Source: a virus | Reading direction: 5' to 3' (one strand) | IMG/VR virus record: IMGVR_UViG_3300045988_159706 | DNA length: 64,000 nucleotides | Part shown: positions 3,199 through 54,058 of the stretch, piece by piece | How the letters are laid out: each line of letters begins with the position of its first letter | How positions within the stretch are numbered: the first letter of the stretch is position 1 | The notes under the pieces: generated by a model | Told to the model about the DNA's origin: nothing | Database searches by the model: none | Seen by the model: only the letters and a program-made list of their open reading frames with translations | Translations under genes and position numbers: made by a program

Positions 3199-3359
3199 CG
3201 GGAACTCGTCTAAGCGAGTCTAAACAGATCTTTAAGCTTAGAGCGTCTCTGGTCTTTATGACTAGAGGGTAGATAGAAGAAATTTAGATTTATAAAAATT
3301 TTAAATTTCTTATAAATTTATTATTATTATGTTGATATTAGCCCACCTAATTATAAATA

Positions 3360-6540: not shown

Positions 6541-6615
6541 GAGAGCTATAGTATTTATAGGTAAGTACACTACTCTGAGGAGTAGAGATAGAGGTTCAAA
6601 TCCTCTTAGCTCTCC
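6541..6615 (+). tRNA. non-canonical tRNA-like gene (identity unclear)
   Basis: T arm AGAGG-TTCAAAT-CCTCT; 8-bp acceptor GAGAGCTA/TAGCTCTC; anticodon arm CTACT-CTGAGG-AGTAG has a 6-nt loop (or 4 bp plus 8 nt). Confidence 0.4.
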
Positions 6616-29532: not shown

Positions 29533-30021
29533 ATGGATAAAATTTGTTCAAAATGTGGGGAAACTAAAGACATTTCACTCTTTGCTAAGGATCGACACTC
29601 TTCTGATGGATATACTTATTGATGTAAAGATTGTAGAAATACAGCAAATAAGAAATATCGGAAAGAAAATCCTGATAAAGTTCAGGAACATAATGAAAAG
29701 TGAAGAGATAAAAGAAAAGAATATTATAGTCTTCCTAAAAATCAAGAAAAGCTTAGAAGACATCATCTCAAGAAAATGTATAATATTACTTTGGAAGACT
29801 ATGATGCTTTGTTTCAACTTCAAGGTGGTGTTTGTGCTATATGTGGAAAACCTGAAACAAGCTCAAAGGCTAGTAACTTAGCAGTAGATCATAATCACAC
29901 AAATGGTAGTATTAGAGGCCTATTATGTAATAAATGTAATAGAGGCTTAGGATATTTTGAAGATGATGCAACTATTTTGTCTAAAGCTATAGAATATTTA
30001 AAAAATAAAGATAATGTTTAG
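29533..30021 (+). CDS. recombination endonuclease VII-like protein (two in-frame TGA)
   Basis: ATG 29533 in frame with track ORF 29776-30021; CAICG...AVDHNHTNGSIRGLLCNKCNRGLG. Confidence 0.75.
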
Positions 30022-31498
30022 ACCGTGTTCAGTCCTCCTTTCAGATTTTTATAAGCAGGATCACCAGCGTCAATATGACCCTAGCATCACTAAGGTAGTT
30101 TCTTACTATGTACCTCGTAAAACTAGGATTCCTGAATTTGATAAGGTAGTAGTTTTTGGTATTCAAGCATTTATTGAGGAGTATCTGATTGAGTACATGA
30201 ATGAAACTTTCTTTAACCGTCCCTTAGAAGAAGTTATTGCAGAATATGAATTTGTGATTTCTTCTACTATGGGAGCAGACCGTGTTAACTCGGATAAAAT
30301 TAAAAACCTTCATGAATTAGGATATCTTCCTATCGAAATTTGGGCACTTCCTGAGGGATATAAAGTAGGAATGAATATCCCCTGTATCGAGATTTCTAAT
30401 ACTAATCCAGAATTTGCATGGTGTACTAATTTCATTGAAACCTTGATGCTCTCTGAGCTTTGGTATCCAATGTGTGTTGCAACTGCTGTAACTAAATATC
30501 GTAGTATCGTAAATGATTTTTATTCTAAAACTTCTGATATTTCTGGTCGTTCTGCTATTTCTGAGTTCGGATTTAGAAGTTTAGTTGGACTTCATGGTGC
30601 TATTAAAGCTTCGTGTGGATTTTTGCTCTCTTTTAATAAGACTGCGACTATTCCTGGCATTATGTATGCTTCAAAGTATTATCATACCCCAATGTCTGTA
30701 GTAGGTGGAGGTATGGCTTCTACTGAGCACTCCGTAATGTGTAGTTCTGCTGCCATTGATGGGGATGAAAAAGTTATGATTCGACGCCTCCTTACTGAGG
30801 TCTATCCTAATGGATCATTCTCTATGGTAAGTGATTCCTATGATTACTGGAATGTTGTCGATGAGATTCTCCCATCTCTTAAGGAAGAAATTCTCAGTAG
30901 AAATGGTACTTTGTATGTTCGTGGTGACTCTGGAGATCCTGTAGAAATTGTAACTGAGACGGTTTTTTCTCTTTGGGAGACTTTTGGAGGCACTGTCAAC
31001 TCTAAGGGATATAAAGTCTTAGACCCTCATGTTCGAGCTTTATATGGTGATGGCATCACTCAGTTACGTGCAAAACAGATTTATCAGATTTTGTATGATA
31101 AAGGATTCTCTGCAGAGAATGTTGCACTTGGTGCAGGAGGATTTTCCATGCTTTCTTACATGGATGAGTTTGGGAATGTAGATATGTTCTCTCGCGATAC
31201 ATTTAATGTAGCAATTAAATGCAGCTATGTAGAACAAACCATTGATGGAAAAACTAAATCTATCATGGTCTACAAAGATCCTAAAACGGATTCAGGAATG
31301 AAGAAATCCCACAAAGGATGTTGTGCTGTTTTCTACAACCATGTAACTGGTGAGTTTGATTGTGATGAAGGTATGACACTGAAAGAAGCTCATAATGAGC
31401 CTTTCAATTTACTTCGTCCTATCTTTTCAGATGGAAAAATGAGAGAGCAAACTACTCTCACAGAAATTCGTAGAACTCTTTGGAACGGGAAATTCTAA
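30014..31498 (+). CDS. nadV: nicotinamide phosphoribosyltransferase (NAMPT/NadV) family protein
   Basis: 494 aa; N-terminal SDFYKQDHQRQY; family size and layout. Confidence 0.8.
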   Translation: MFRPCSVLLSDFYKQDHQRQYDPSITKVVSYYVPRKTRIPEFDKVVVFGIQAFIEEYLIEYMNETFFNRPLEEVIAEYEFVISSTMGADRVNSDKIKNLHELGYLPIEIWALPEGYKVGMNIPCIEISNTNPEFAWCTNFIETLMLSELWYPMCVATAVTKYRSIVNDFYSKTSDISGRSAISEFGFRSLVGLHGAIKASCGFLLSFNKTATIPGIMYASKYYHTPMSVVGGGMASTEHSVMCSSAAIDGDEKVMIRRLLTEVYPNGSFSMVSDSYDYWNVVDEILPSLKEEILSRNGTLYVRGDSGDPVEIVTETVFSLWETFGGTVNSKGYKVLDPHVRALYGDGITQLRAKQIYQILYDKGFSAENVALGAGGFSMLSYMDEFGNVDMFSRDTFNVAIKCSYVEQTIDGKTKSIMVYKDPKTDSGMKKSHKGCCAVFYNHVTGEFDCDEGMTLKEAHNEPFNLLRPIFSDGKMREQTTLTEIRRTLWNGKF

Positions 31499-32268
31499 TG
31501 AAAGAAGTATATGAAGGAATAGTTTCCTTTCTTAAGAATTATCAAGAACGTACCCATGTGAAAGGGTATGTTCTTGGTATTTCTGGAGGAAAGGATTCTA
31601 CTGTAGTGGCCAAATTATTGGTAGATTCTATAGGTAAGGAAAATGTATTAGGTGTGCTAATGCCTAATGGTAAGCAAGCTGATATTGAGGATAGTTATAC
31701 AGTATGTGACTTTCTTGATATTAACTATACTGTTGTTAATATAGAAAATGCGTTTGATGAACTTATTCATCAAATTGATGTTTCGAAAATAACTACAGTG
31801 GAAGGGAATGAAGAAAACATTCCAGTAACGGAAAAGGCTCTTACTAATGTTCCTCCTCGTATTCGTATGACTATTCTATATACTATAGCTCAGTCTGTAG
31901 GATATCGAGTAGCGGGGACTAGTAATGCTTCAGAATTATTTATTGGTTGGGGAACTAAATGGGGAGATTTGGCATCTGATATTAATCCTATTTCTCAATT
32001 AACATGTTCTGAAGTTATTTCTTTAGGAGACTATATGGGACTCCCATATGATCTTATACATAAGACTCCTGCAGATGGATTAACAGGAAAGTCTGATGAA
32101 GAAAATTTTGGTTTTACATATAAAGAACTTGACACTCTTATTGTAAAGCAGCGAAATCTTACTTGCACAGGTAGAATACAATGTGCTTTTACTGAACAAG
32201 AATTAAAAATCTTAAAATTACATGAAGCTGCGTATCACAAAGATTATGTAATTAAAATACATTATTAA
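31498..32268 (+). CDS. nadE: NAD+ synthetase
   Basis: ATG 31498 (TAATG overlap with the preceding gene); PP-loop GISGGKDSTVVA. Confidence 0.85.
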   Translation: MKEVYEGIVSFLKNYQERTHVKGYVLGISGGKDSTVVAKLLVDSIGKENVLGVLMPNGKQADIEDSYTVCDFLDINYTVVNIENAFDELIHQIDVSKITTVEGNEENIPVTEKALTNVPPRIRMTILYTIAQSVGYRVAGTSNASELFIGWGTKWGDLASDINPISQLTCSEVISLGDYMGLPYDLIHKTPADGLTGKSDEENFGFTYKELDTLIVKQRNLTCTGRIQCAFTEQELKILKLHEAAYHKDYVIKIHY

Positions 32269-32269
32269 T

Positions 32270-33160
32270 ATGGGAAGCGGATCATGGAGTTCTAGCACAT
32301 ATAAAGCTTTTGCTGATAGCTATACTAAAAAATCCAGAGAAGAAATCTTTCATCAAAGATCTCTACACGAAGAAATGGATCTTACAAAAAGTAAGACGCA
32401 TATTCGAGAATCTAGAGATTCTGAGGAACACCCAGAATCTCTTCCAGTTTTCATTGCATTAGATGAAACTGGTTCAATGGGTTCAATTCCTGATAAGATG
32501 ATCAGGGATTATCTTCCGAAGTTAATGGATTCTATTATTGATTCTATTGGAGTTAAACACCCTCAAATTCTTTTTATGGGAGTAGGAGATCATGAATGTG
32601 ATTACTGCCCGTGTCAGGTAGGTCAATTCGAATCTTCAACTGTTGCAATTAATCAATGTCTCTCTAAAATCTATTTGGAGGGTCGTGGTGGAGGTAATAG
32701 TGGAGAATCCTACTTACTTCCTTGGATTATTGCAGGAAATCACACGTCAATTGATAGCTGGGAAAAGCGAAAGCAAAAAGGATTCCTTTTTACAGTTGGT
32801 GATGAACCTACTTTGACAAGAATAAGTAGGGGAACTTTGGCATCCCTCACTGGAATGGAGTATGAGCGTGATTATACCTGGCAGGAGGCTTATGAACTTG
32901 CCTGTGAGAAATATCATGTGTTTCATATCCATGTTCGACATGGAAGTGAACATTATGATGAGGTAGTAGCTAAACAAATGAAAGAAATTCTTAGAGAAAA
33001 CTTTATTGTGTGCAAACCTGATGAAGTTGTAGAAGCCATTTGTGAAGCTATGGGTAAAACTCTAAAAGGTAGCTCTTCAGTAATTGAAGAGGTTTCTGCA
33101 GAAAAAACTGTAGAAAATACAGAATCAAAACCTAATATATTTGACATACATCGACGATAA
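32270..33160 (+). CDS. vWA-like domain protein
   Basis: MIDAS-like ALDETGSMGS. Confidence 0.55.
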   Translation: MGSGSWSSSTYKAFADSYTKKSREEIFHQRSLHEEMDLTKSKTHIRESRDSEEHPESLPVFIALDETGSMGSIPDKMIRDYLPKLMDSIIDSIGVKHPQILFMGVGDHECDYCPCQVGQFESSTVAINQCLSKIYLEGRGGGNSGESYLLPWIIAGNHTSIDSWEKRKQKGFLFTVGDEPTLTRISRGTLASLTGMEYERDYTWQEAYELACEKYHVFHIHVRHGSEHYDEVVAKQMKEILRENFIVCKPDEVVEAICEAMGKTLKGSSSVIEEVSAEKTVENTESKPNIFDIHRR

Positions 33161-34254
33161 TGTATAATATTGTAGTGGGTTGTACGTTTGGCGACGAGGG
33201 CAAGGGTCAAGTGACTCATGCCCTTTGTTGCGACGCTAAAAGAAAGCGTTTAAAACCTCTGGTTGTTAGATTTTCTGGAGGGCATCAATCAGGGCACACA
33301 GTAGCTACTTCATTTGGAACAATGCATATATTTTCTTGCTTTGGATCTGGAACATTTGCTGAAGCACCTACCTATTGGATGAAGCAATGTGTTATGGATC
33401 CACTACAATGGATGCGGGAACGAGAGGAGTTGGATTTCTTAGGATGTAATATCCCTATCCAATATTTTGATCCATATGTACAAGTAACAACTCCTTTTGA
33501 CGTAATGCTGAATTCTGAAAGGAGTAAAGGTTTTACAGTAGGAAAAGGGATATGGGAGACTGTTCAGAGACAAAGAGAAGGACTAGCTTTATATGTAAAA
33601 GATTTAGCTTTTCCTCAAGTTGTAAAAATGAAGCTCCGATTAATTAGAGAATGGGCGGAAGATAGACTCCAGTTTAAGGAAACTTATTCAAGATTTGCTC
33701 ATGTTTTCGATAACTTAGATTCTTTAGTACATACTTATTGTAAGATTTTTTATCCCAATATAGTATTGGAGGATACGTTATCTAAATTAGCATGGAAAGA
33801 AAAGACTTCTGTGATATTTGAGGGTTCTCAAGGAGTACTTTTGGACCCTAATATTGGATTTTCACATGAATATACTACCCCACTTCCATGTTGTCCATCG
33901 TGGGACAATCTCCCATTCTTTTTAAGTGATGATCAACTAATATTTAATTTTGTATATAGATCTTATTTAACAAGACATGGTAAAGGGCCTGTTGGAGGTT
34001 CTATATTCAAGGAGATTAATAATCCTTATGAAACAAATTTAAATAATCCTTTTCAAGGAGAATTTCAAACTTATGAATTCAATAAGGAATTAGTCTTGTA
34101 TGGAATTGATCATGTTAAATCACACTTTAATCCTGAATATAAGGTAAGGTTGATTGAAACATGTTGTGACATATGTGCAGGACATGACTTAGGAATCCCT
34201 TATAATTACTCTATCAAAACCTGCAAAAAGAATTTTGACTCTGTATGCAAATAA
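33160..34254 (+). CDS. short adenylosuccinate-synthetase (PurA) homolog
   Basis: GDEGKGQV and GGHQSGHT motifs; 364 aa, shorter than typical bacterial PurA. Confidence 0.65.
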   Translation: MYNIVVGCTFGDEGKGQVTHALCCDAKRKRLKPLVVRFSGGHQSGHTVATSFGTMHIFSCFGSGTFAEAPTYWMKQCVMDPLQWMREREELDFLGCNIPIQYFDPYVQVTTPFDVMLNSERSKGFTVGKGIWETVQRQREGLALYVKDLAFPQVVKMKLRLIREWAEDRLQFKETYSRFAHVFDNLDSLVHTYCKIFYPNIVLEDTLSKLAWKEKTSVIFEGSQGVLLDPNIGFSHEYTTPLPCCPSWDNLPFFLSDDQLIFNFVYRSYLTRHGKGPVGGSIFKEINNPYETNLNNPFQGEFQTYEFNKELVLYGIDHVKSHFNPEYKVRLIETCCDICAGHDLGIPYNYSIKTCKKNFDSVCK

Positions 34255-35066
34255 TTAACTTTTTATACCCAGAAAAGTCAGAAATAAAGTATCGAATTGA
34301 TACTTATCCTGATTCTCAATCTCATCTTGTACTTGAGTCTGAAATAGATAGACGAAAGTCTTTGTCGATATATACTAGACTGTCCAATTTGAATGATATT
34401 TGGATCCTAATGCAATTAGCTGATATTTGTCATCGTCAAGGTATCCAGATTTCCTTTTTACGAATAGCTTATTTATTTGCAGCACGAACTGATAGATTAT
34501 TTTCTTTTAACGAAGCATTAGATTTGGAGCTTGTTAAAAAATGTCTTACCTTTGTACAAGCAGATCAAATTCTAATATTAGATCTTCATTCTAAGCGTTT
34601 GATTACAGAAGGGGTAATTGATAATGACTGGCCTACATTCTTTGCTTTAGAAGCAAGTTCTAATATTCCAGAGAATGTTTTATTCCCTGACGAAGGTGCC
34701 TATCATCGTTACAGTGAGCTTTTAGACTTTAATATAAAATGTCGTACTACAACGTATGTTGCTACAAAGCATAGGATCTCAAGGGATAAGCTAGAGGTAA
34801 AATTACCTTCTGAAATAAAGCCAAATACTTCTATTCTAGTTTTTGATGATTTATGTGATGGTGGGGGAACTTTCTTTGCAATTCATAAAGCATTACAAGA
34901 TATGGGAGTAACTGATGTGCATTTACGTGTTACGCATGCTATCCAAAAAGAACCTTTAGTAAAGTTATCAAAACTTTACAAAACAATAACAATTACCAAT
35001 TCTTATAAGGATTGGGATAAAGAAGAACTTCCAAACAATATAAAAGTAATAAGAGTTTATGAATAA
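34245..35066 (+). CDS. ribose-phosphate pyrophosphokinase (Prs)-like protein
   Basis: PRTase motif VFDDLCDGGGT; Prs-like N-domain. Confidence 0.65.
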   Translation: MQIINFLYPEKSEIKYRIDTYPDSQSHLVLESEIDRRKSLSIYTRLSNLNDIWILMQLADICHRQGIQISFLRIAYLFAARTDRLFSFNEALDLELVKKCLTFVQADQILILDLHSKRLITEGVIDNDWPTFFALEASSNIPENVLFPDEGAYHRYSELLDFNIKCRTTTYVATKHRISRDKLEVKLPSEIKPNTSILVFDDLCDGGGTFFAIHKALQDMGVTDVHLRVTHAIQKEPLVKLSKLYKTITITNSYKDWDKEELPNNIKVIRVYE

Positions 35067-35409
35067 ATTTAATGAAATTCTGAGTGCTACTGGAACTGCG
35101 GTACTCAAGAAACGTGCTGAAATCATCAATGCTGATGCCCGCGAAGCAGCTAAGGATCAGGTTAATCTCATTGAGAAAGAGATTCGTCAGATTAAGTCCA
35201 AGATTATGAATCTGGAGGATCTGTCGATTAAATCGACCGAATCACTGGTTGTAGGTACGGATTTTAAGGCAGATGAGTGGGTAACTCAGATGTTCAAGCT
35301 TCGTGATGACTTGCGCAACGCTGAAATCTGTCTGGAAATTGCTCAGAATATTTATAATGAGTATTTCACGGAACTTCCTGAAGTAGACTGTGATAAGAAA
35401 GCAGAATAG
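35059..35409 (+). CDS. coiled-coil hypothetical protein
   Basis: ORF track. Confidence 0.5.
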   Translation: MNKFNEILSATGTAVLKKRAEIINADAREAAKDQVNLIEKEIRQIKSKIMNLEDLSIKSTESLVVGTDFKADEWVTQMFKLRDDLRNAEICLEIAQNIYNEYFTELPEVDCDKKAE

Positions 35410-35415
35410 CTTCAT

Positions 35416-35437
35416 AGGCGGATTTACTCCGCCTTTT
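35416..35437 (+). terminator. rho-independent terminator
   Basis: AGGCGGA/TCCGCCT stem followed by TTTT. Confidence 0.7.
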
Positions 35438-35439
35438 AA

Positions 35440-35513
35440 GGGCCCTTAGCTCAATTGAATAGAGCATCTGACTACGAATTAGAAGGTTACAGGTTTGAGT
35501 CCTGTAGGGCCCA
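35440..35513 (+). tRNA. tRNA-Arg: tRNA-Arg (anticodon ACG)
   Basis: Acceptor GGGCCCT/AGGGCCC; anticodon loop CTACGAA. Confidence 0.85.
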
Positions 35514-35516
35514 CAT

Positions 35517-35720
35517 ATGAAAACTGTTTTATATAGAATACAATCAATTGAAGCCCCAGAAAATGAAGGGTTTCGGTATGGCTCATTAAGAACGCTATCT
35601 AAGACAAAGGTAGATGAAGAAATGTGCTTAAGGAATGAGTTTGGAAGTCATTATCTAATTAATGTTCCAGATTATTGAATTTGTGAGATTTTAAAAGAAA
35701 TAGAAGAAGATGATGTATAG
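35517..35720 (+). CDS. hypothetical protein (67 aa, one in-frame TGA)
   Basis: ATG 35517 to TAG 35718-35720, open only if TGA is sense. Confidence 0.4.
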
Positions 35721-36771
35721 TTTAGATGAAATAGGTATTTTACCTAGTTCAAAAGCCACGGATATTACAAGTCGTAGTGAGTGTAGTCCTTTAGGAGACT
35801 TAGGAACATATCCTATTTTTGTTTCTCCTATGACATCCGTTATTGATGAATCAAATTATCAACTTTTTACAAAGGCTGATGTGCTTCCAATTATTCCAAG
35901 ACGTGTAGATAATTTACAGTTTAGACTTAATGCATGTAACCATGTTTGGTGTGCATTTAGTTTAAAGGAATTTGAAACATTCTTTTGTGAAGGAGAACCT
36001 TCTGATGAGTGTCCTCTGGTACTTATTGATATGGCTAATGGCCACATGAAGAAAATTTATGACCTGGTTAAGAAGGCTAAGGAAAAGTGGAGCACGATTA
36101 TTATCATGGTAGGTAATATAGCTCATCCAGATCTTTATTGGGAATGCTATGATGCAGGGGTGGACTATGTTCGTGTAGGTATTGGAACTGGCAGTGTATG
36201 TACTACAGGAGTAAAAACTGGAGTACATGCTTCTATGGAATGGCTATTGCAACAATTAGTTAAGCGTCGATCCATGATTAAAGAGTCTCCTAAACCTAAA
36301 AAGGCTCCAAAGATTATCGCAGATGGAGGAATTTCTACAATAGATCGAGCTATAAAGTGTTTAGCTTTGGGCGCCGATTATGTAATGATGGGTAAAATGT
36401 TTGCTCAATGTAACGAAGCTTGTGGGTATGTTAGAACAAAGTGGCCAGATGATAATGATACTATACTTAAATATTTTGCATCTTTAACTAAAGCAGAAAG
36501 TGATCGAATCATTGAAGTGTATCCTAAAGAGCGATTATACTACGGAATGGCAAGTGAACGTGGTCAAAAGGATATTTCAAACACTAAAAAGGCCGAAGAA
36601 GGAATTGAAATTTGGGTTCCTGTTGAATATACTCTTGAATCTTTACTTTCTCAATTTGATTCTGCATTAAGGTCTGCTATGTCTTATACAGGATGTAGGA
36701 CTCTTGAAGAATTCAAAAATGTAAAATGGGAGTATATGTCTCCCTCTGAAAGAAATGCTTATTACAAATAA
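35710..36771 (+). CDS. IMP dehydrogenase/GMP reductase family protein
   Basis: GIGTGSVCTTGVKTGV and IADGGI motifs; 353 aa (GMP-reductase size). Confidence 0.75.
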   Translation: MMYSLDEIGILPSSKATDITSRSECSPLGDLGTYPIFVSPMTSVIDESNYQLFTKADVLPIIPRRVDNLQFRLNACNHVWCAFSLKEFETFFCEGEPSDECPLVLIDMANGHMKKIYDLVKKAKEKWSTIIIMVGNIAHPDLYWECYDAGVDYVRVGIGTGSVCTTGVKTGVHASMEWLLQQLVKRRSMIKESPKPKKAPKIIADGGISTIDRAIKCLALGADYVMMGKMFAQCNEACGYVRTKWPDDNDTILKYFASLTKAESDRIIEVYPKERLYYGMASERGQKDISNTKKAEEGIEIWVPVEYTLESLLSQFDSALRSAMSYTGCRTLEEFKNVKWEYMSPSERNAYYK

Positions 36772-37044: not shown

Positions 37045-37127
37045 CAACGCTTAAGATTAACATATATATATATATATTTAGATATGAATTTTATAGGTTA
37101 TGTTATAATATTTAACTAATTTTTAGA

Positions 37128-37769
37128 ATGAATTCAAAATGATTGTTAGAAAAAGAAAAATTAGAACAATTAATTTTAATTGATAAACTAAGTTACGAAG
37201 AGATAGGGAAAAAATATAATTGCTCTGGTAGTAATATTAAAAAAGTTGCTTCAAAAATAGGAATTACGTTACCAAAGAGACGTAAATTAAATCCTAATGA
37301 AACATTTAATAAAGGAGTGCATAAAGTAATTGTTTCTAATATTAATATCCCTAAACCTATACAAAAAGTTGGCACTAAAACTTATTGTCTTAACTGTGGA
37401 CATGAATTAGATGGATATGCCAAAAAATATTGCTCTAGTAAATGTCAAATAGAGTATAAACATAAATTAGCATATAAAAAATTTTTAGAAGGAGACCTTT
37501 CTATTATGAGAGCTAATTATAACCCTAGAGTATTTAAGAAAGATATTATAAAAGAACAAAACAATAAGTGTGCTATCTGTGGTTTAGAACCTGAGTGAAA
37601 TAATAAGGAGCTTGTTTTTATTTTAGATCATATTGACGGACATGCTGCAAACAATAAACGAGATAATTTAAGGTGTATATGTCCTAATTGTGATTCACAA
37701 TTAGATACTTATAAATCTAAGAATAAAAATGGAGATAGGCATTATTACAGATACCATAAAAATAAATAG
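37128..37769 (+). CDS. HNH endonuclease (213 aa, two in-frame TGA), paralog of 22280-23014
   Basis: ATG 37128; TGA at 37140 and 37596; LDHIDGHAANNKRDNLRCICPNCD; same ...RYxKNK C-terminus as the 22280 gene. Confidence 0.75.
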
Positions 37770-40914: not shown

Positions 40915-41481
40915 ATGAATATTGAAAATTTTTCAACGATAAATCTTCCTGGTCTAGCAGACCTAGGAGATACTAAAAATTGAGCAAGTATTAAAGGGGA
41001 TGATCCAGGGCCTAAAGGGCCTATAGGTTCTGTGGGATATTCAGCAACAGGTGTAGGCAGGGGAAATCTTACTTCTACTACCTCAACTGGAATCGGTACT
41101 AATAGTATCACTATAAGCTCTAGTAATCCGTATGCATATGGGCCAATTAAAACAGAAAGATTTCCTATGAGTGAAGAACTTTATTTATATATAACTGGTG
41201 GTAAAAGTTGTATTTCTACAGCACCTCCTACTTGGAATAGTCAAGAGAACTGTCTTTGGCATGCAAAAGGTTCCCGAGTATTTTCAATAGAAGGTGATTA
41301 TGGACTATCTCGTCTTATAAAATCTTATATTGGTTCTGAACTAGATATAATTTACACATATCTTACTATAAATGGATTTAATGTTTATGCTACTATTTTA
41401 GGACCTTCTGGAGAATTATATATAACGAAAGAATCTGTAAAAACTAAAGAAGATTTGATTCATAGAAATCGAAAGAAATAA
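40915..41481 (+). CDS. tail-fiber-like protein with a short collagen-like segment (one in-frame TGA)
   Basis: ATG 40915 in frame with track ORF 41032-41481; TGA at 40981; KGDDPGPKGPIGSVG. Confidence 0.55.
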
Positions 41482-41493
41482 ATAAAAAGGATT

Positions 41494-41583
41494 GCGCCTG
41501 ACCCGAGGCGGGGGGGAGGTCTTCAAAACCTCTATGCTGTTGGTCCATCTTCAGCCCTGTGGGATCGTTACCTACCAGGCGTG
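41494..41583 (+). tRNA. non-canonical tRNA with UCA anticodon (candidate opal suppressor, Sec-tRNA-like architecture)
   Basis: 6-bp anticodon stem GGAGGT/ACCTCT with loop CTTCAAA (TCA 41523-41525); compact D arm CCCG-AGG-CGGG; about 26-nt variable region with GCTG/CAGC stem; T arm GTGGG-ATCGTTA-CCTAC; acceptor GCGCCTG/CAGGCGT (8 bp if TG/TG wobbles are counted). Confidence 0.55.
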
Positions 41584-41600
41584 CAAGTAAGAAGTAAAAT

Positions 41601-42185
41601 ATGACTATTAAGGAACAATGTATACATTTACGAGAAGAAGGAAAAACTTATAACGAAATTTGTGCTATTCTACACTGCTCTAAAAGTACAGTTGCATATC
41701 ATTTGAACGCGACTACTAAAATAGCAGCCACAAAATGACAAAGTGAAAATAAATGTAAGGATTGAAAGTATAAATTTATGCATAGTTGTTCTAATTTTTT
41801 AAATCGAAAAGATAGATCTAAACACATCAAAACAATGTGCTCAGATTGAAATAAAAAGTTTAGAACTCACGTATCAGAGTTCAATAATAGATATAAAAAT
41901 AAAGGAAATTTGGCTAATAAATGTTACTATAAAGATGTGTTAACATATCTTAATGGAACTAATGTTAAATGTTATTTAACAGGTACACCTATTGATTTGA
42001 CAAAAGATGATTATTGTTTTGATCATATAGTTCCTGTATCAAAAGGAGGAACTAATGAATTATCAAATCTAGGAGTAACTATTCCCTCAGCTAATTATTC
42101 TAAACATGATTTAACTATAGAGGAATATTTGTCTTTATGTAAACAGGTTTTAGAACATCATGGGTATACTGTAAGTAAAACTTAA
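41601..42185 (+). CDS. HNH endonuclease with an N-terminal HTH (194 aa, three in-frame TGA)
   Basis: ATG 41601 in frame with track ORF 41910-42185; FDHIVPVSKGGTNELSNL. Confidence 0.7.
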
Positions 42186-50072: not shown

Positions 50073-50376
50073 ATGTTGTTTAGTTGCAGTTCAGACTGGA
50101 CAATATTCTAAATTGGTGTTTGAGGACCTTAATAGGGATCCTTGCGATGATTTAAAATATGTCACTGTTGTAATGCTTCCAAATTGAGACTATAAAGATA
50201 CTCTCAAAATTGGAGATACTGGATATCTGCAATTTGAAAGTGTAAAAGCTGGAGAAACTCAGTGATATAATAGAGAAATACAAGATTTTGCAGTTTATAA
50301 ATTTAATGCTAATTATTTTATAAACTTCATTAAACACAAAGAGATAAATAATATGAAAGAATTTAAGTTTGATTAA
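50059..50376 (+). CDS. hypothetical protein (105 aa, two in-frame TGA)
   Basis: ATG 50059 to TAA 50374-50376, open only if TGA is sense. Confidence 0.45.
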
Positions 50377-50378
50377 AT

Positions 50379-51209
50379 ATGGATACAGAATTTGGAGCTA
50401 AGTTAAAGGAAGCTATAACGGCTAAAGACAATGATATTAATAGCTTGGTATGAAAAGACAAAACTGGTGTAAACATTCGTTTAATGGATATTTCCCAGAA
50501 TGAACTAAAGCGATATCATCGTCATTGCGAACAAATGCTAACTAACAGGGACATTTACAAACCTGGTAAATTAGTAATTCGTGAAAACATCCAAAAATGT
50601 TGAGATTCTTGTAATGCTGAATTGTTTGCAAGATATTTAATGCATGATTGTGAGACAGATATTAAAACCAATAAAGATCTACTTGACTTTATCAATGTCC
50701 AAAGAAAAGCAAATAATGTAGATGTGGAAGACAGTATTTCAGTTTTATTTACTGGACTTCCTCCTATCTATGAGAAAGTTACTGTAGGGAAGTTAATGGA
50801 TGTATGTTTTGATAAGCTTGATGTACTTAACAAAAAGATGATTACAGACAAGTTTATTATTGCGCAGGGAATCTGACTCACAGACGAAGAAAAACAAGAG
50901 CTCACAGAATTAGAAACAGGGGGTAAAATTAGAAATCGAATGGAAGTTATCAAGGAAAGACTTTGTCTTAATCCTGATATTAGACTGCGTGTAAGTCCTA
51001 CAGGACTTTCATTTGCTGAGTTTAGAGCTTTAATTCAACTTTCTGATCTCCCTAAAATATCTTCCTTGTCTACAATTGCTCTTAAAACTCTTAGAGACAA
51101 AGTTTTACTGCTTTTGGACAATGATCTTGATTATCATATCAATAAATGGATGAAAATTAAGAAGGATATTGAACGAGTAGCAGAATATAAAAACTGGAAT
51201 TTAGATTAG
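50379..51209 (+). CDS. hypothetical protein (276 aa, three in-frame TGA)
   Basis: ATG 50379 is in frame with track ORFs 50622-50876 and 50940-51209; only TGAs separate them. Confidence 0.55.
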
Positions 51210-51234
51210 GTTCTGAAAATTAATTTTAGTAATT

Positions 51235-52173
51235 TTGGAACAAGTAAATACAACACTATTAAAAGCTCTATGCGAAATAGTACATCCTTCTAGACAGGAA
51301 CAGTCCATGATAACTTATATACTTAACTTCTGTTATACAATAGAAGGTATACAATTTGAAATGGATGATGAAAATAATCTTTTTATTACAAAAAATACTA
51401 CTAATCCAGCGGTATATCCTTGTCTAGTAGCACATATGGATGAAATTCTACATTATACAGGTGTAAAATGTGCAAAAATTAAAGGAAATAAAATTTATGG
51501 CTATTATAAGAAGACAGGAAAACAATGTGGACTTGGGTTAGATGACTGTTTTGGCATCTATATTTGTCTACATTGTTTATATTGCCTTCCAGACCTAAAA
51601 GTTTGTTTCACAACTCAAGAAGAAATGGGTTGTATAGGAGCAGAAATTGCAGGTTTAAATATTGATTTCTTTGATAATTGCAGATTCCTGTTACAAGCTG
51701 ATAGAATGGGAGGTCAAGATTTGATTACACATACTAATGGCATAGACATTACTTCAGATGAGTTTCTAGAAGATATAGATAGTCTTTTAGAAAAATATAA
51801 GTACAAAGAGGCACGAGGTACAATGACAGATGTTGGAACTTTAAAAGAAAACATTAATCTGTCTGCAGTTAATATTTCGTGCGGATATTATTGTGCTCAT
51901 ACACACAAAGAATATGGAAATTTAACGGAGTTAAATAATTGTTTAAATTTTATCTTAGAGATTATTAGGCTTAATGATAAAGTTTATGAACATACAGCTG
52001 ATCTTTCTGGATCATATGCAAGGTATTCAGATTTTGATTGGCCTCCTGGAGAATCTAGGCATGTTTATGCTTACCAAGATTCTGATGAAGCTTTCTATGA
52101 AAATCTTGCAGATAAGTGTTCCAACTGTAAGACTTATAGATGTGATGAGTGCGGTTACTATTGACGTGGCTAA
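51235..52173 (+). CDS. M42/M28-like metallopeptidase homolog
   Basis: VAHMDEI, GLDDCFG, TTQEEMGCIGA patterns; TGA at 52162, then TAA at 52171-52173; start codon uncertain. Confidence 0.5.
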
Positions 52174-53393
52174 TGGACAAAACTCAACGTCAACGATTAG
52201 GCGTTCAAAAATGAATTAATAATAAAGGAAATGGGATTTGGGTTTGAAGTACTGGTGTTGGTAAATCATTTGGAGCTTTAATGGCTTGTGTGAAATTACT
52301 AAAAATTAGACCAGATGCTAAAATTCTAATTTCTGTACCTACAACAATTCTCAAGGAACAATGACTAAGAGACGTAGCTAAAACTAAATTCTTTGGAAAT
52401 GTTACTGTTGAGGTTATTAATTCTATTTTAAAAAAATCTTGAGAAGTTGATTTTCTAATAATTGATGAGCTTCATACTGCGGTATCGGAGCAGTCAATAA
52501 AAATATTTGATCAAGTTAAGTATGATTTCTTTCTGGGGCTTACAGCTACTTTAGAAAGACTTGATGGAAGAGAGGAATTACTATCTTTATATACTAGAGT
52601 AATTGATGTCATTACAACTGAAGAAGCAATAAAAAATGGATGATTATCGCCATTTAGGTATTACAAAGTTCTTGTGGAGGTTGATGACATGGATACTTAT
52701 TATGTAATGAACCAAAAGTTTAATTCAGTTTTTGCATTCTTTAATTTTGATTTCAGTTCTGCAATGAAATGTGCAACTGATTGAAAGTTCCGTAATAATT
52801 ACGCTTATAAGATGGGATATGATAGAAAGCAGGTTTTAAATGCTGCTATGGCGTGGATGCAATTAATGCAGAAGCGCAAAAAATTTGTTATGTCCCACCC
52901 TAAAAAGTTTGAAATAGCGAAAAAAATTATAGAAGCAAGAAAAGATAAAAAAATTATTACTTTTTCAGCCACTATTAAAGATGCGGAATCTTTAAAAGTT
53001 GGATATACTCTTCATAGCAAAAAGAAAAAACAAGAAAACTCAGAAACTATTGCATTGTTTAAGTCTCAATCTTCAGGGGTTCTTAATACATCTAAAGCAG
53101 CTAATGCAGGATTGGATTGCCCTGATATAAATTGTGAGATTAGAATTAGTGGAACTAGTTCTGGAATTGATGCAAGGCAGATTTTGGGAAGGGGATTGCG
53201 TTATGTTAATAATAAGATAACTGAAGTTTTTACTTTGGTTGTTAAAGGCACTAACGAAGAATCCTGGTTTAATAAGGCCCATCAAGGCATTTCATATATT
53301 ACTATCACTGAAGATCAACTTGACTTAGTTTTAAAAGGAGAAGAAGTAATCACAAGAAAACGAGATGATGTAATTACTAACTATAGATTTTAA
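52173..53393 (+). CDS. SF2 (DEAD/DEAH-like) helicase (406 aa, six in-frame TGA)
   Basis: ATG 52173 (TAATG overlap) in frame with track ORF 52812-53393; GTGVGKS, IIDELH, LTATLER, KNG-TGA-LSPF. Confidence 0.75.
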
Positions 53394-53458
53394 ACAGTAC
53401 TAAGTATCGTAATAACTGTAGGTACTTAGATTTGAATTTAACTTCCAAAACTATATAA

Positions 53459-54058
53459 ATGGAGTTAAATACAATACTTAACATAATGGCAGAATATCAT
53501 ATTAGTGCAGACGAACTGTTACTAATATGATTAACTCTCTATGCTCGGGATGAAGAAGGCCATTCTGAGCTTTTCTTAAAGTGGTGGACAGATTGTGAGG
53601 GAAAACAGAAACTGAAAACCATGTTTGAGAACCTAAAAGAAAAATCCATAATCAAGAAGAATTATAATCCAGAATCTTATGTTCCTAATGATATTGAATT
53701 TAATAAAAATTTTCTAAAGAAGTATTATAAACAATCAGGAGTTCTTGGAAAAGAGCTATTTGATAACTATGAACCATTTATCCAAATTAATGGAAAGATG
53801 GCCAGTCTTAGAAATATTGCTAAGAAATTTTATACTTTAGAGGAATTTTACTTTTATTATTCTTCTCAAATAGGACATAATCCAGAAAAGCATAAAGAGG
53901 TGATGGAAATTTTACGATGGGCTCGTGAAAACAAGCTTTGTAAAGTTTCTATTCTTGAGTTCGTTGCTTCTCATAAATGAAATGAATTTGCACAGATGAA
54001 GGCTGAAGGATTTAGTCCTGATGTTGGTACTTCTTTTGATGTTTATCAGGATTTTTAA
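53459..54058 (+). CDS. hypothetical protein (199 aa, two in-frame TGA)
   Basis: ATG 53459 in frame with track ORF 53621-53980; continues through TGA to TAA 54056-54058. Confidence 0.5.

Follow-up and report, generated by a model that had tools for sequence, protein, structure and literature searches.

A UCA-anticodon tRNA of a TGA-recoding gut phage is probably a tryptophan-type decoder with a degenerate second anticodon-like hairpin

Phages that reassign TGA or TAG must get anticodon-reading host synthetases to aminoacylate tRNAs with an altered anticodon. The identity elements of TrpRS are C34, C35 and A36 together with G73, and both TrpRS and GlnRS are anticodon-dependent enzymes. This problem is raised by a 64,000-nucleotide stretch of viral DNA (IMG/VR record IMGVR_UViG_3300045988_159706; the window in the following), which carries a tRNA gene with the anticodon UCA at positions 41494-41583. 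Which amino acid does this tRNA carry, and how could a host synthetase recognize it? A preliminary description of the locus had emphasized its aberrant structure, compared it with selenocysteine tRNA (tRNA-Sec) and allo-tRNAs, which would imply serylation, and noted at the same time that the recoded TGA positions resemble Trp. Here, we found that the structural observation was largely correct, but that the Sec/Ser interpretation is not supported. From the sequence comparisons described below we consider it probable that the element is a Trp-charged UGA decoder, which carries a degenerate second anticodon-type hairpin in its variable arm.

The window (G+C content 34.7%) involves 28 tRNA genes, 26 of which were called by ARAGORN and two by Rfam only. 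As previously stated, the element at 41494-41583 is the sole one with a UCA anticodon within these 64 kb. ARAGORN called it as a 91-nt 'tRNA-SeC(tca)' on the plus strand (41494-41584), but neither the tRNA nor the tRNA-Sec model of Rfam matched it, even at E<=10. Its parts are given below; the two-hairpin family mentioned there is introduced further down.

41494 to 41583, plus strand: tRNA(UCA), 90 nt up to G73 (called by ARAGORN; 40.2 bits over the full length with R1, a generic 'tRNA plus extra arm' covariance model)
41494 to 41500, plus strand: 5' strand of the acceptor stem, GCGCCUG, 7 bp with CAGGCGU at 41576-41582; first pair G1.U72
41502 to 41512, plus strand: compact D arm CCCG-AGG-CGGG, 4 bp and a 3-nt loop in the minimum free energy (MFE) fold
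41516 to 41532, plus strand: anticodon arm GAGGU-CUUCAAA-ACCUC, loop at 41521-41527, UCA at 41523-41525
41536 to 41555, plus strand: variable-arm hairpin GCUG-UU-G GUCCAUC UU-CAGC, a putative degenerate pseudo-anticodon arm in the R1 alignment, UCCA at 41544-41547
41559 to 41575, plus strand: T arm GUGGG-AUCGUUA-CCUAC, in which A54/U58 replace T54/A58; the stem equals the family consensus
41583, plus strand: discriminator G73, as in nearly all members of the two-hairpin family

This analysis confirmed that the element is structurally aberrant. The anticodon loop CTTCAAA, the compact D arm, the unusual T loop ATCGTTA and a variable region of 26 nt with its own stem (41533-41558, UAUGCUGUUGGUCCAUCUUCAGCCCU) were all recovered as described before. 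The D arm is preceded by a single nucleotide (A41501, corresponding to A8) and followed by a 3-nt connector (GGG, 41513-41515). An anticodon stem of 6 bp can be drawn, but it consists of 5 bp plus the pair G41515.U41533, which could equally be a 26-44-type pair. In contrast, the proposed 8-bp acceptor stem cannot be drawn: A41501 faces C41575, so there is no eighth pair and the acceptor/T geometry is 7/5. The discriminator is followed by CAA and, hence, CCA is not encoded; in this respect the element conforms to all 26 ARAGORN tRNAs of the window, which have a C directly after the discriminator and never encode CCA.

The window also carries one canonical tRNA-Trp:

18918 to 18990, plus strand: class-I tRNA-Trp(CCA) with G1.U72, C2-G71 and G73; its anticodon loop is CUCCAAA, compared with CUUCAAA in the element

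G1.U72 and G73 are indeed common to both tRNAs, but G1.U72 is not specific for Trp, since 8 of the 26 window tRNAs carry it, and it was dropped as a Trp signature. It also occurs in two metagenomic tRNA-Trp(CCA) genes (L223, L233) discussed below. Within the window the nearest acceptor stem, with 6 of 7 pairs in common, is that of a neighbouring tRNA-Leu(UAG); descent from this gene was nevertheless set aside, because it has A73 instead of G73 and the rest of the molecule differs. A promoter and terminator scan yielded signals at background level only.

When IMG/VR was scanned for exact matches of the anticodon arm, nine contigs (89-170 kb) were retrieved and in all of them (9/9) the complete 91 nt were identical. 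These nine loci thus provided no covariation. Altogether, at least 18 viral loci and at least 14 metagenome loci carried the identical element. In contrast, when 10 haplotypes were compared, the 600-nt flanks were only 84-96% identical to the window, while the element was 100% identical. Covariation among relatives was seen in one variant (L186, L187, L214), in which GGAGGU...ACCUCU is replaced by GGAGAU...AUCUCU, a compensatory G-C to A-U exchange in the anticodon stem. The element scored 40.2 bits with R1, which was built from the two-hairpin family, but Leu, Lys and Ser tRNAs outscore it, so that this value does not constitute a specific membership test. Taken together, the invariance against diverged flanks, the compensatory stem change and the covariance score indicate that the element is a real, conserved tRNA beyond chance. 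Since the same tRNA sits on human-gut metagenome contigs of 162-175 kb, the window derives from a gut phage with a genome of about 170 kb. None of 50,697 deposited phages matched in a Megablast search with 24 kb of the window, so that an annotated relative was not available. In one human gut contig (L235, OOWN01000015, 162.5 kb), the window-type tRNA is reduced to its 3' part, from AAAACCUCU on. The end of an open reading frame (ORF) takes the place of its 5' half, which was not found within 4.6 kb upstream; this gene is disrupted or split.

Reading TGA as a sense codon joins ORF fragments in a subset of the window genes. Recoding of TAG was considered as well, as a tRNA(CUA) is present, but was rejected since in-frame TAGs occur only at ORF edges. 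For the amino acid assignment we compared 19 in-frame TGA sites across 65 related loci, the helicase identity of which ranged from 100% to 42%. The aligned codons were TGA (602), TGG (197), TAT (88), ATT (31), TTT (28), CTT (23), CCT (22) and GCT (21), and among a total of about 1050 codons only three coded for Ser and one for Gly. TGA and TGG are exchanged at 11 of the 19 sites, other replacements are mostly aromatic or hydrophobic, and TGC or TGT was found at a single site. Because TGG leads the replacements, the remainder is mostly aromatic or hydrophobic and Ser and Gly are nearly absent, in-frame TGA behaves as Trp and not as Ser, Sec/Cys or Gly; the earlier impression of Trp-like TGA positions was correct. 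None of the window ORFs scanned was a sel gene, and Pfam detected neither a TrpRS nor a release factor in the large window ORFs tested. The genes concerned are the following.

40915 to 41481, plus strand: upstream ORF with a single TGA in frame (40981); its homologue in a relative (L114, see below) lies directly before the tRNA
41601 to 42185, plus strand: ORF for a helix-turn-helix (HTH) plus HNH endonuclease protein, in-frame TGA at 41736, 41763 and 41847
50376 to 58160, plus strand: replication module read with TGA as sense, putative clients of the tRNA, comprising the next six entries
50376 to 51209, plus strand: ORF
52173 to 53393, plus strand: superfamily 2 (SF2) helicase, TGA-containing
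53459 to 54058, plus strand: ORF
54058 to 55152, plus strand: DnaB-like helicase, TGA-containing
55154 to 55891, plus strand: AAA ATPase, TGA-containing
57117 to 58160, plus strand: Toprim primase, TGA-containing

The element occupies the 119-nt gap between the ORF ending at 41481 and the recoded HNH/HTH ORF starting at 41601. This location had been given correctly, but the label 'tail-fiber-like' for the upstream ORF lacks Pfam support, as Pfam gave no match for 40915-41481. Three HTH/HNH paralogues with two to three in-frame TGA each are interspersed among the tRNA genes (22271-23014, 37116-37769, 41601-42185), and the third of them is missing at the corresponding position of the relative L114.

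A metagenome scan with the T arm GTGGGATCGTTACCTAC retrieved many tRNAs, several of which were tRNA-Trp(CCA) with an identical T arm. Two of these, L223 (Ga0114918_10175263, about 1190-1262) and L233 (Ga0233437_1000940, about 2500-2580), are located within tRNA arrays. The former reads GCUCCUG-A-GCCG-AGG-CGGC-UGG-...CUCCAAC...-GUGGG-AUCGUUA-CCUAC-CAGGAGU-G-CCA, and the latter differs in its D arm, GCUG-AGG-CAGC. The element agrees with both of them in 6 of 7 acceptor pairs (all but pair 3-70), in G73, in having one nucleotide ahead of the D stem and a connector of 3 nt behind it, and in the complete T arm. All three tRNAs have a D stem of 4 bp closed by an AGG loop, with pairs that differ by compensatory changes. 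Judged by these traits (7/5 geometry, one nucleotide between acceptor and D stem, 4-bp D stem with AGG loop, 3-nt connector, AUCGUUA loop, G1.U72 and G73), the body of the element belongs to a 'compact-D' tRNA-Trp lineage and not to the Sec type. Compact-D tRNA-Trp(CCA) genes measure about 69-71 nt to the discriminator and 72-74 nt with the encoded CCA. ARAGORN missed both of them, and also the A-U variant of the window tRNA. Several viral contigs (L183, L184/L196, L188, L190, L198, L199, L200) carry a different conserved tRNA-like RNA of about 85 nt, often just downstream of a normal tRNA. It has a 9-bp acceptor-like stem (GGCUUCAAG/CUUGAAGCC), a GCCA 3' end, a 4-bp T stem and the AUCGUUA loop.

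The variable arm became interpretable from a relative (L028/L114; 88% helicase identity), which carries a 94-nt canonical two-hairpin tRNA(UCA). Its acceptor end has A1-U72 and G73, its D arm and T loop are normal, and its variable arm reads ACUGG-CGUCCAAAA-CCAGU. The loop of this second hairpin is GUCCAAA, which is a tRNA-Trp(CCA) anticodon loop. The gene follows directly after a homologue of the ORF upstream of the element (33% identity, E = 4e-18, same C-terminus), so that on the upstream side both tRNAs occupy the same genomic slot; downstream synteny between the two was not found.

Scanning with anticodon arm and T loop, but with a free variable region, yielded 27 viral loci. A long arm was present in 22 of them, and 19 of these 22 tRNAs contained UCCAAA. 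A second scan yielded at least 80 loci and at least about 55 distinct sequences from many environments; altogether, the two-hairpin design was seen in more than 55 distinct viral tRNAs. The additional arm consists of a 4-7-bp stem and a loop that is almost always (C/G)UCCAAA, while 50 different stems were counted among 58 hairpins. When 34 members were aligned with MAFFT, covariation was seen in all five helices, and helix 4, which is the second hairpin, exhibits two-sided changes at 5/5 pairs. The junction between CCA arm and T arm is 3-4 nt long, as in class-I tRNAs. When a family member was compared by BLAST with the 50,697 deposited phage records, no full-length match was obtained, and the alignment was split instead: positions 6-40 matched the 5' halves of annotated tRNA-Trp genes, and positions 50-96 (CCA hairpin, 3-4-nt linker, T arm and acceptor) matched tRNA-Trp 3' halves. 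Because each half corresponds to a tRNA-Trp with its own anticodon arm, the family is apparently built as a tRNA-Trp whose anticodon arm has been duplicated in tandem, the first copy of which would have turned into UCA while the second kept CCA. At two-hairpin loci, ORF coverage was gained with TGA as sense in 27 of 50 cases, compared with 3 of 50 for TAG.

How does the window tRNA relate to this family? R1 aligns its GUCCA with the family motif gUCCAAA, and in both the window element and the L114 tRNA GUCCA is located 12 nt past AAAACC. In the second loop of the element, GUCCAUC, U33', C34', C35' and A36' are kept, A37' and A38' are lost, and the stem contains two U.U mismatches. A hairpin between anticodon and T stems that aligns with helix 4, the Trp-type T stem GUGGG/CCUAC and G73 are all present. 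In contrast, the family's canonical D arm (GUGU-AAUGGUA-GCAC) and its T loop UUCGAAU were not found in the element. From the alignment of GUCCA with gUCCAAA and the matching L114 spacing the element can be classified as an apparent hybrid or derived family member, in which a compact-D Trp body is combined with a second hairpin that has decayed.

In cellular genome collections two-hairpin tRNAs were found on phage-like contigs and on one scaffold of Bacteroides neonati. The latter (L281; strain MS4, NZ_HG726020.1, 1.48 Mb) carries a two-hairpin tRNA(UCA) identical to a viral one (L175); presumably it lies in a prophage and would be a tractable experimental system. Most matches in these collections were rejected as family members, since they are true tRNA-Sec, in which 'UCCAAAAGG' is a stem with an AAAA loop and no pseudo-anticodon.

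Activity data for such tRNAs are available from a preprint (10.1101/2025.10.30.685624), in which 213 phage suppressor tRNAs were screened in E. coli extract. All 13 tRNA(UCA) analysed there by mass spectrometry are reported to have inserted Trp, but these 13 are not named, and variable arms are not mentioned in the text. We sorted the 31 tRNA(UCA) of its supplementary table by variable-arm design. Here, we found that 13 of 13 two-hairpin tRNAs were UGA-active (26,699-58,947 relative fluorescence units compared with a background of 5,403), whereas only 2 of the 18 others were (UCA-18, UCA-12; Fisher p = 5e-7), a contrast that is confounded by tRNA body type as discussed below. Among the tRNAs of this table, UCA-16 is identical to L156 and UCA-3 to L105 of our collection.

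The same table suggests a parallel for TAG. About 17 phage tRNA(CUA) carry variable-arm 7-nt loops of the sequence CUCUGAA, UUCUGAG or CUUUGAA, which are the anticodon loops of tRNA-Gln(CUG/UUG), and their stems covary. Most of these tRNAs are highly active at UAG, but two with altered second loops (CUA-83, CUCUGCC; CUA-86, UUUUGUU) are weak or inactive. A further UAG-active tRNA(CUA), tRNA-CUA-44, has the body of a tRNA-Trp together with a GUCCAAA loop. Thus, the second loop matches the amino acid that recoding needs (CCA in UCA suppressors, CUG/UUG in CUA suppressors), and this match points towards a synthetase as partner of the hairpin.

Mechanistically, host TrpRS would charge the element with Trp and the charged tRNA would then read the in-frame TGA of the replication and HNH genes as Trp. 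Replacement of C34 by U would weaken TrpRS recognition, and the second hairpin would offer a CCA loop to the enzyme again. Two options can be envisaged. The CCA hairpin might be recognized in place, or the CCA arm might move into the place of the anticodon arm when the tRNA is charged, leaving the UCA arm for the ribosome. The latter is conceivable because the CCA arm keeps the 3-4-nt T-arm junction and the UCA arm the canonical N26 D-arm junction. Such a molecule would be a 'two-headed' tRNA with one arm for the synthetase and the other for the ribosome. In the window's copy, in which only UCCA is left, identity would probably depend for the most part on G73, on the acceptor stem of Trp type and on C35 and A36. 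We are quite confident that the element is a Trp-charged UGA decoder. That the second hairpin serves as TrpRS identity aid in the family we regard as an even call, and for the degenerate hairpin of the window's copy such a role is doubtful. The generalization that phage stop suppressors carry a spare cognate anticodon stem-loop (CCA for TrpRS at UGA, CUG/UUG for GlnRS at UAG), with the window tRNA losing this device, is put forward tentatively and falls just short of even odds.

Several observations weigh against the reading as a Trp-charged decoder with a degenerate anticodon-type hairpin. The Rfam tRNA model failed on the element, and its MFE z-score is only -0.73, although such a single-sequence fold is uninformative. 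Its second loop is GUCCAUC and not GUCCAAA, and the stem contains the two U.U mismatches. On an L-shaped tRNA the tip of the variable arm is far from the anticodon-binding domain of TrpRS, so that reading in place requires an unusual geometry. The window covers 64 kb of a genome of about 170 kb, and a second UCA tRNA or a phage TrpRS could lie outside. As to the screening data, two-hairpin tRNAs resemble E. coli tRNA-Trp in their bodies too (A1-U72, G73), and many class-I UCA tRNAs of the table are low-confidence predictions from other hosts; because of this confounding, the contrast supports function but does not prove the mechanism. The 13 tRNAs of the mass-spectrometry set are not named. 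The Gln-type hairpins have 3-5-bp stems and different linkers, so that one common mechanism is not assured. Finally, a long variable arm and G73 are SerRS determinants, and some mis-serylation of the element may occur.

These determinants, together with the UCA anticodon, the possible 6-bp anticodon stem and the SeC label of ARAGORN, speak for a rival reading as a tRNA-Sec-like or allo-tRNA-like molecule, according to which the element would be a SerRS substrate and UGA would mean Ser, or Sec after conversion. We consider this highly improbable. The element has a 7/5 geometry and not 8/5, 9/4, 8/4 or 9/3, its D arm has 4 bp and a 3-nt loop, the tRNA-Sec model of Rfam remained silent at E<=10 and genuine tRNA-Sec differ. 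Moreover, its acceptor stem (G.U, C-G, G-C) has 0 of 7 pairs in common with the tRNA-Ser genes of the window, and the three Ser codons at the TGA sites are opposed by a dominance of TGG, TAT and TTT. The degenerate hairpin, the aberrant D arm and T loop, the lack of an Rfam match, the truncated copy in L235 and the limited coverage of the genome might alternatively suggest a decaying relic without function, so that UGA would be read by a tRNA outside the window or by near-cognate readthrough. This is improbable too, since the element is invariant while neighbouring coding sequence has diverged by 4-16%, its anticodon stem is held by a compensatory pair change and the same 'aberrant' body is found in tRNA-Trp(CCA) genes of tRNA arrays. 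In addition, TGA is heavily used and conserved in essential replication genes, and contigs of the window clade are absent among the matches listed in two scans for canonical UCA tRNAs.

If the element is a Trp-charged UGA decoder, its second hairpin might still not be an identity element for a synthetase. It could be a neutral scar of duplication, or it could have another partner: it might protect against host anticodon nucleases as decoy or shield, offer a handle to modification enzymes such as MiaA, influence EF-Tu or ribosome handling or the competition with RF2, or allow one tRNA to read both UGA and UGG. The architecture does resemble a tandem anticodon-arm duplication, and in the window's copy most of the motif is gone, although this copy is strictly conserved, so that a perfect mimic is apparently dispensable. 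The remote position of the variable-arm tip, the activity of the class-I tRNAs UCA-18 and UCA-12 in E. coli extract and the unexplained long variable arms of the phage's Lys(UUU) and Thr(UGU) tRNAs point in the same direction. On the other hand, the loop is constant while the stems covary across many lineages, and the motif tracks the required amino acid, which points to the anticodon-dependent enzymes TrpRS and GlnRS. The low activity of CUA-83 and CUA-86 with their altered loops also argues for a role of the loop. On balance, a hairpin unrelated to synthetase identity appears rather unlikely, and we prefer the reading as a Trp-charged decoder with a degenerate anticodon-type hairpin.

If this reading is true, a built-in original anticodon loop would be a simple and general answer to the identity problem of stop reassignment, and it would represent a previously unrecognized natural identity element in class-II-like tRNA-Trp and tRNA-Gln. 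The family is large, functionally validated by the screen of others and structurally unremarked. The strong UGA suppressors in the only large screen available are two-hairpin tRNAs. ARAGORN mislabels two-hairpin tRNAs as tRNA-Sec, and variants with the compact body are missed by ARAGORN and Rfam; therefore, virome analyses probably under-call or mis-call suppressor tRNAs and genetic codes. The design is also relevant to suppressor-tRNA engineering for genetic-code expansion and nonsense-suppression therapy.

The window contains additional unusual features. A tRNA with the anticodon CUA (20950-21030; 'Pyl' in ARAGORN, 40 bits with the Rfam tRNA model) has a poorly paired anticodon stem, and no TAG readthrough was observed in the window. 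The anticodon loop of a tRNA-like gene at 6542-6615 (Rfam, 49 bits) is 6 nt long (CUGAGG), and ARAGORN assigns no anticodon to this gene. The tRNA-Lys(UUU) at 21129-21216 carries a long variable arm with the hairpin GCC-GAAA-GGC, and the tRNA-Thr(UGU) at 23240-23322 a variable region of 14 nt. Neither is an anticodon mimic, but such class-II-like arms are normally absent from Lys and Thr tRNAs. A Pistol self-cleaving ribozyme was detected at 3204-3274 (70.3 bits compared with the Rfam gathering score of 34.5). The regions 30002-36771 and 61045-62145 involve an auxiliary metabolic cluster (NAMPT/NAPRTase-like, NAD synthase, adenylosuccinate synthetase-like and IMPDH/GMP-reductase-like genes) and an RlaP-family nucleotidyltransferase of an RNA repair pathway.

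When compared with known systems, the element has the UCA anticodon, G73, a long variable arm, a lengthened anticodon stem and the SeC label of ARAGORN in common with bacterial tRNA-Sec (RF01852). However, bacterial tRNA-Sec have an 8/5 geometry with a 13-bp acceptor branch instead of 7 + 5 bp, and a D stem of 6 bp with a 4-nt loop instead of the 4 bp and 3 nt that covary in L223 and L233. Their variable stem comprises 6-8 bp with a small loop; genuine bacterial tRNA-Sec recovered from genome collections have an 8-bp acceptor, a 7-bp variable stem and an AAAA loop. UGA positions read by a tRNA-Sec would correspond to Sec/Cys in homologues, whereas those of the window align with TGG, TAT and TTT. 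Allo-tRNAs (Mukai et al. 2017, PMC5389517) are also non-canonical, class-II-like and metagenomic, and some carry stop anticodons, but their 12-bp branch is split 8/4 or 9/3 and their identity is Ser, compared with 7/5 and apparently Trp here.

Similarity was also seen with the tRNA-Trp(UCA) of code 4 phages, Mycoplasma and mitochondria, which have the CUUCAAA loop and G73 and read UGA as Trp with TrpRS; for the TGA suppressors of phages, charging by the host TrpRS was predicted by Borges et al. The described tRNA-Trp(UCA) are treated as class-I molecules, whereas in the element the variable arm measures 26 nt, the D loop 3 nt, and the T loop contains A54/U58. Of the features of a bacterial-type tRNA-Trp it has G73, UCA in a CU.CAAA loop and a codon spectrum that suggests Trp. 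The E. coli tRNA-Trp determinant is A1-U72, but the element has G1.U72, as do the phage's tRNA-Trp(CCA), L223 and L233 (8/26 tRNAs in the phage). A single nucleotide between acceptor and D stem, a tiny D loop, a possible 6-bp anticodon stem and lack of T54 also occur in tRNA-Pyl and in reduced mitochondrial tRNAs. For these non-canonical traits PMC7609411 is a partial source. However, tRNA-Pyl has a 3-nt variable loop, CUA and PylRS, in contrast to the 26-nt arm, UCA and the Trp-type acceptor stem of the element.

A displaced anticodon-like hairpin is read by an enzyme of the TyrRS/TrpRS subclass when TyrRS binds the tRNA-like structure of brome mosaic virus (BMV TLS-Tyr). Such viral structures are 3'-UTR elements of RNA viruses and, unlike the element, not decoding tRNAs. 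A comparable design is an engineered one: a pseudo-anticodon variable arm raised aminoacylation by a HisRS to which an extra anticodon-binding domain had been fused (Mukai 2020, PMC7590224). As in the two-hairpin family, a mimic of the cognate anticodon arm serves there as variable arm of a suppressor tRNA, but the design is synthetic and combines an allo-tRNA chassis with a modified HisRS, whereas the phage tRNAs are natural and would need unmodified TrpRS or GlnRS. No description of a natural pseudo-anticodon arm was found in the openly searchable literature, including the review on non-canonical tRNAs (PMC7609411) and the phage-recoding papers. UGA-to-Trp suppressor tRNAs of recoded phages are already known, and what appears to be new here is the natural pseudo-anticodon arm together with the compact-D tRNA-Trp body.

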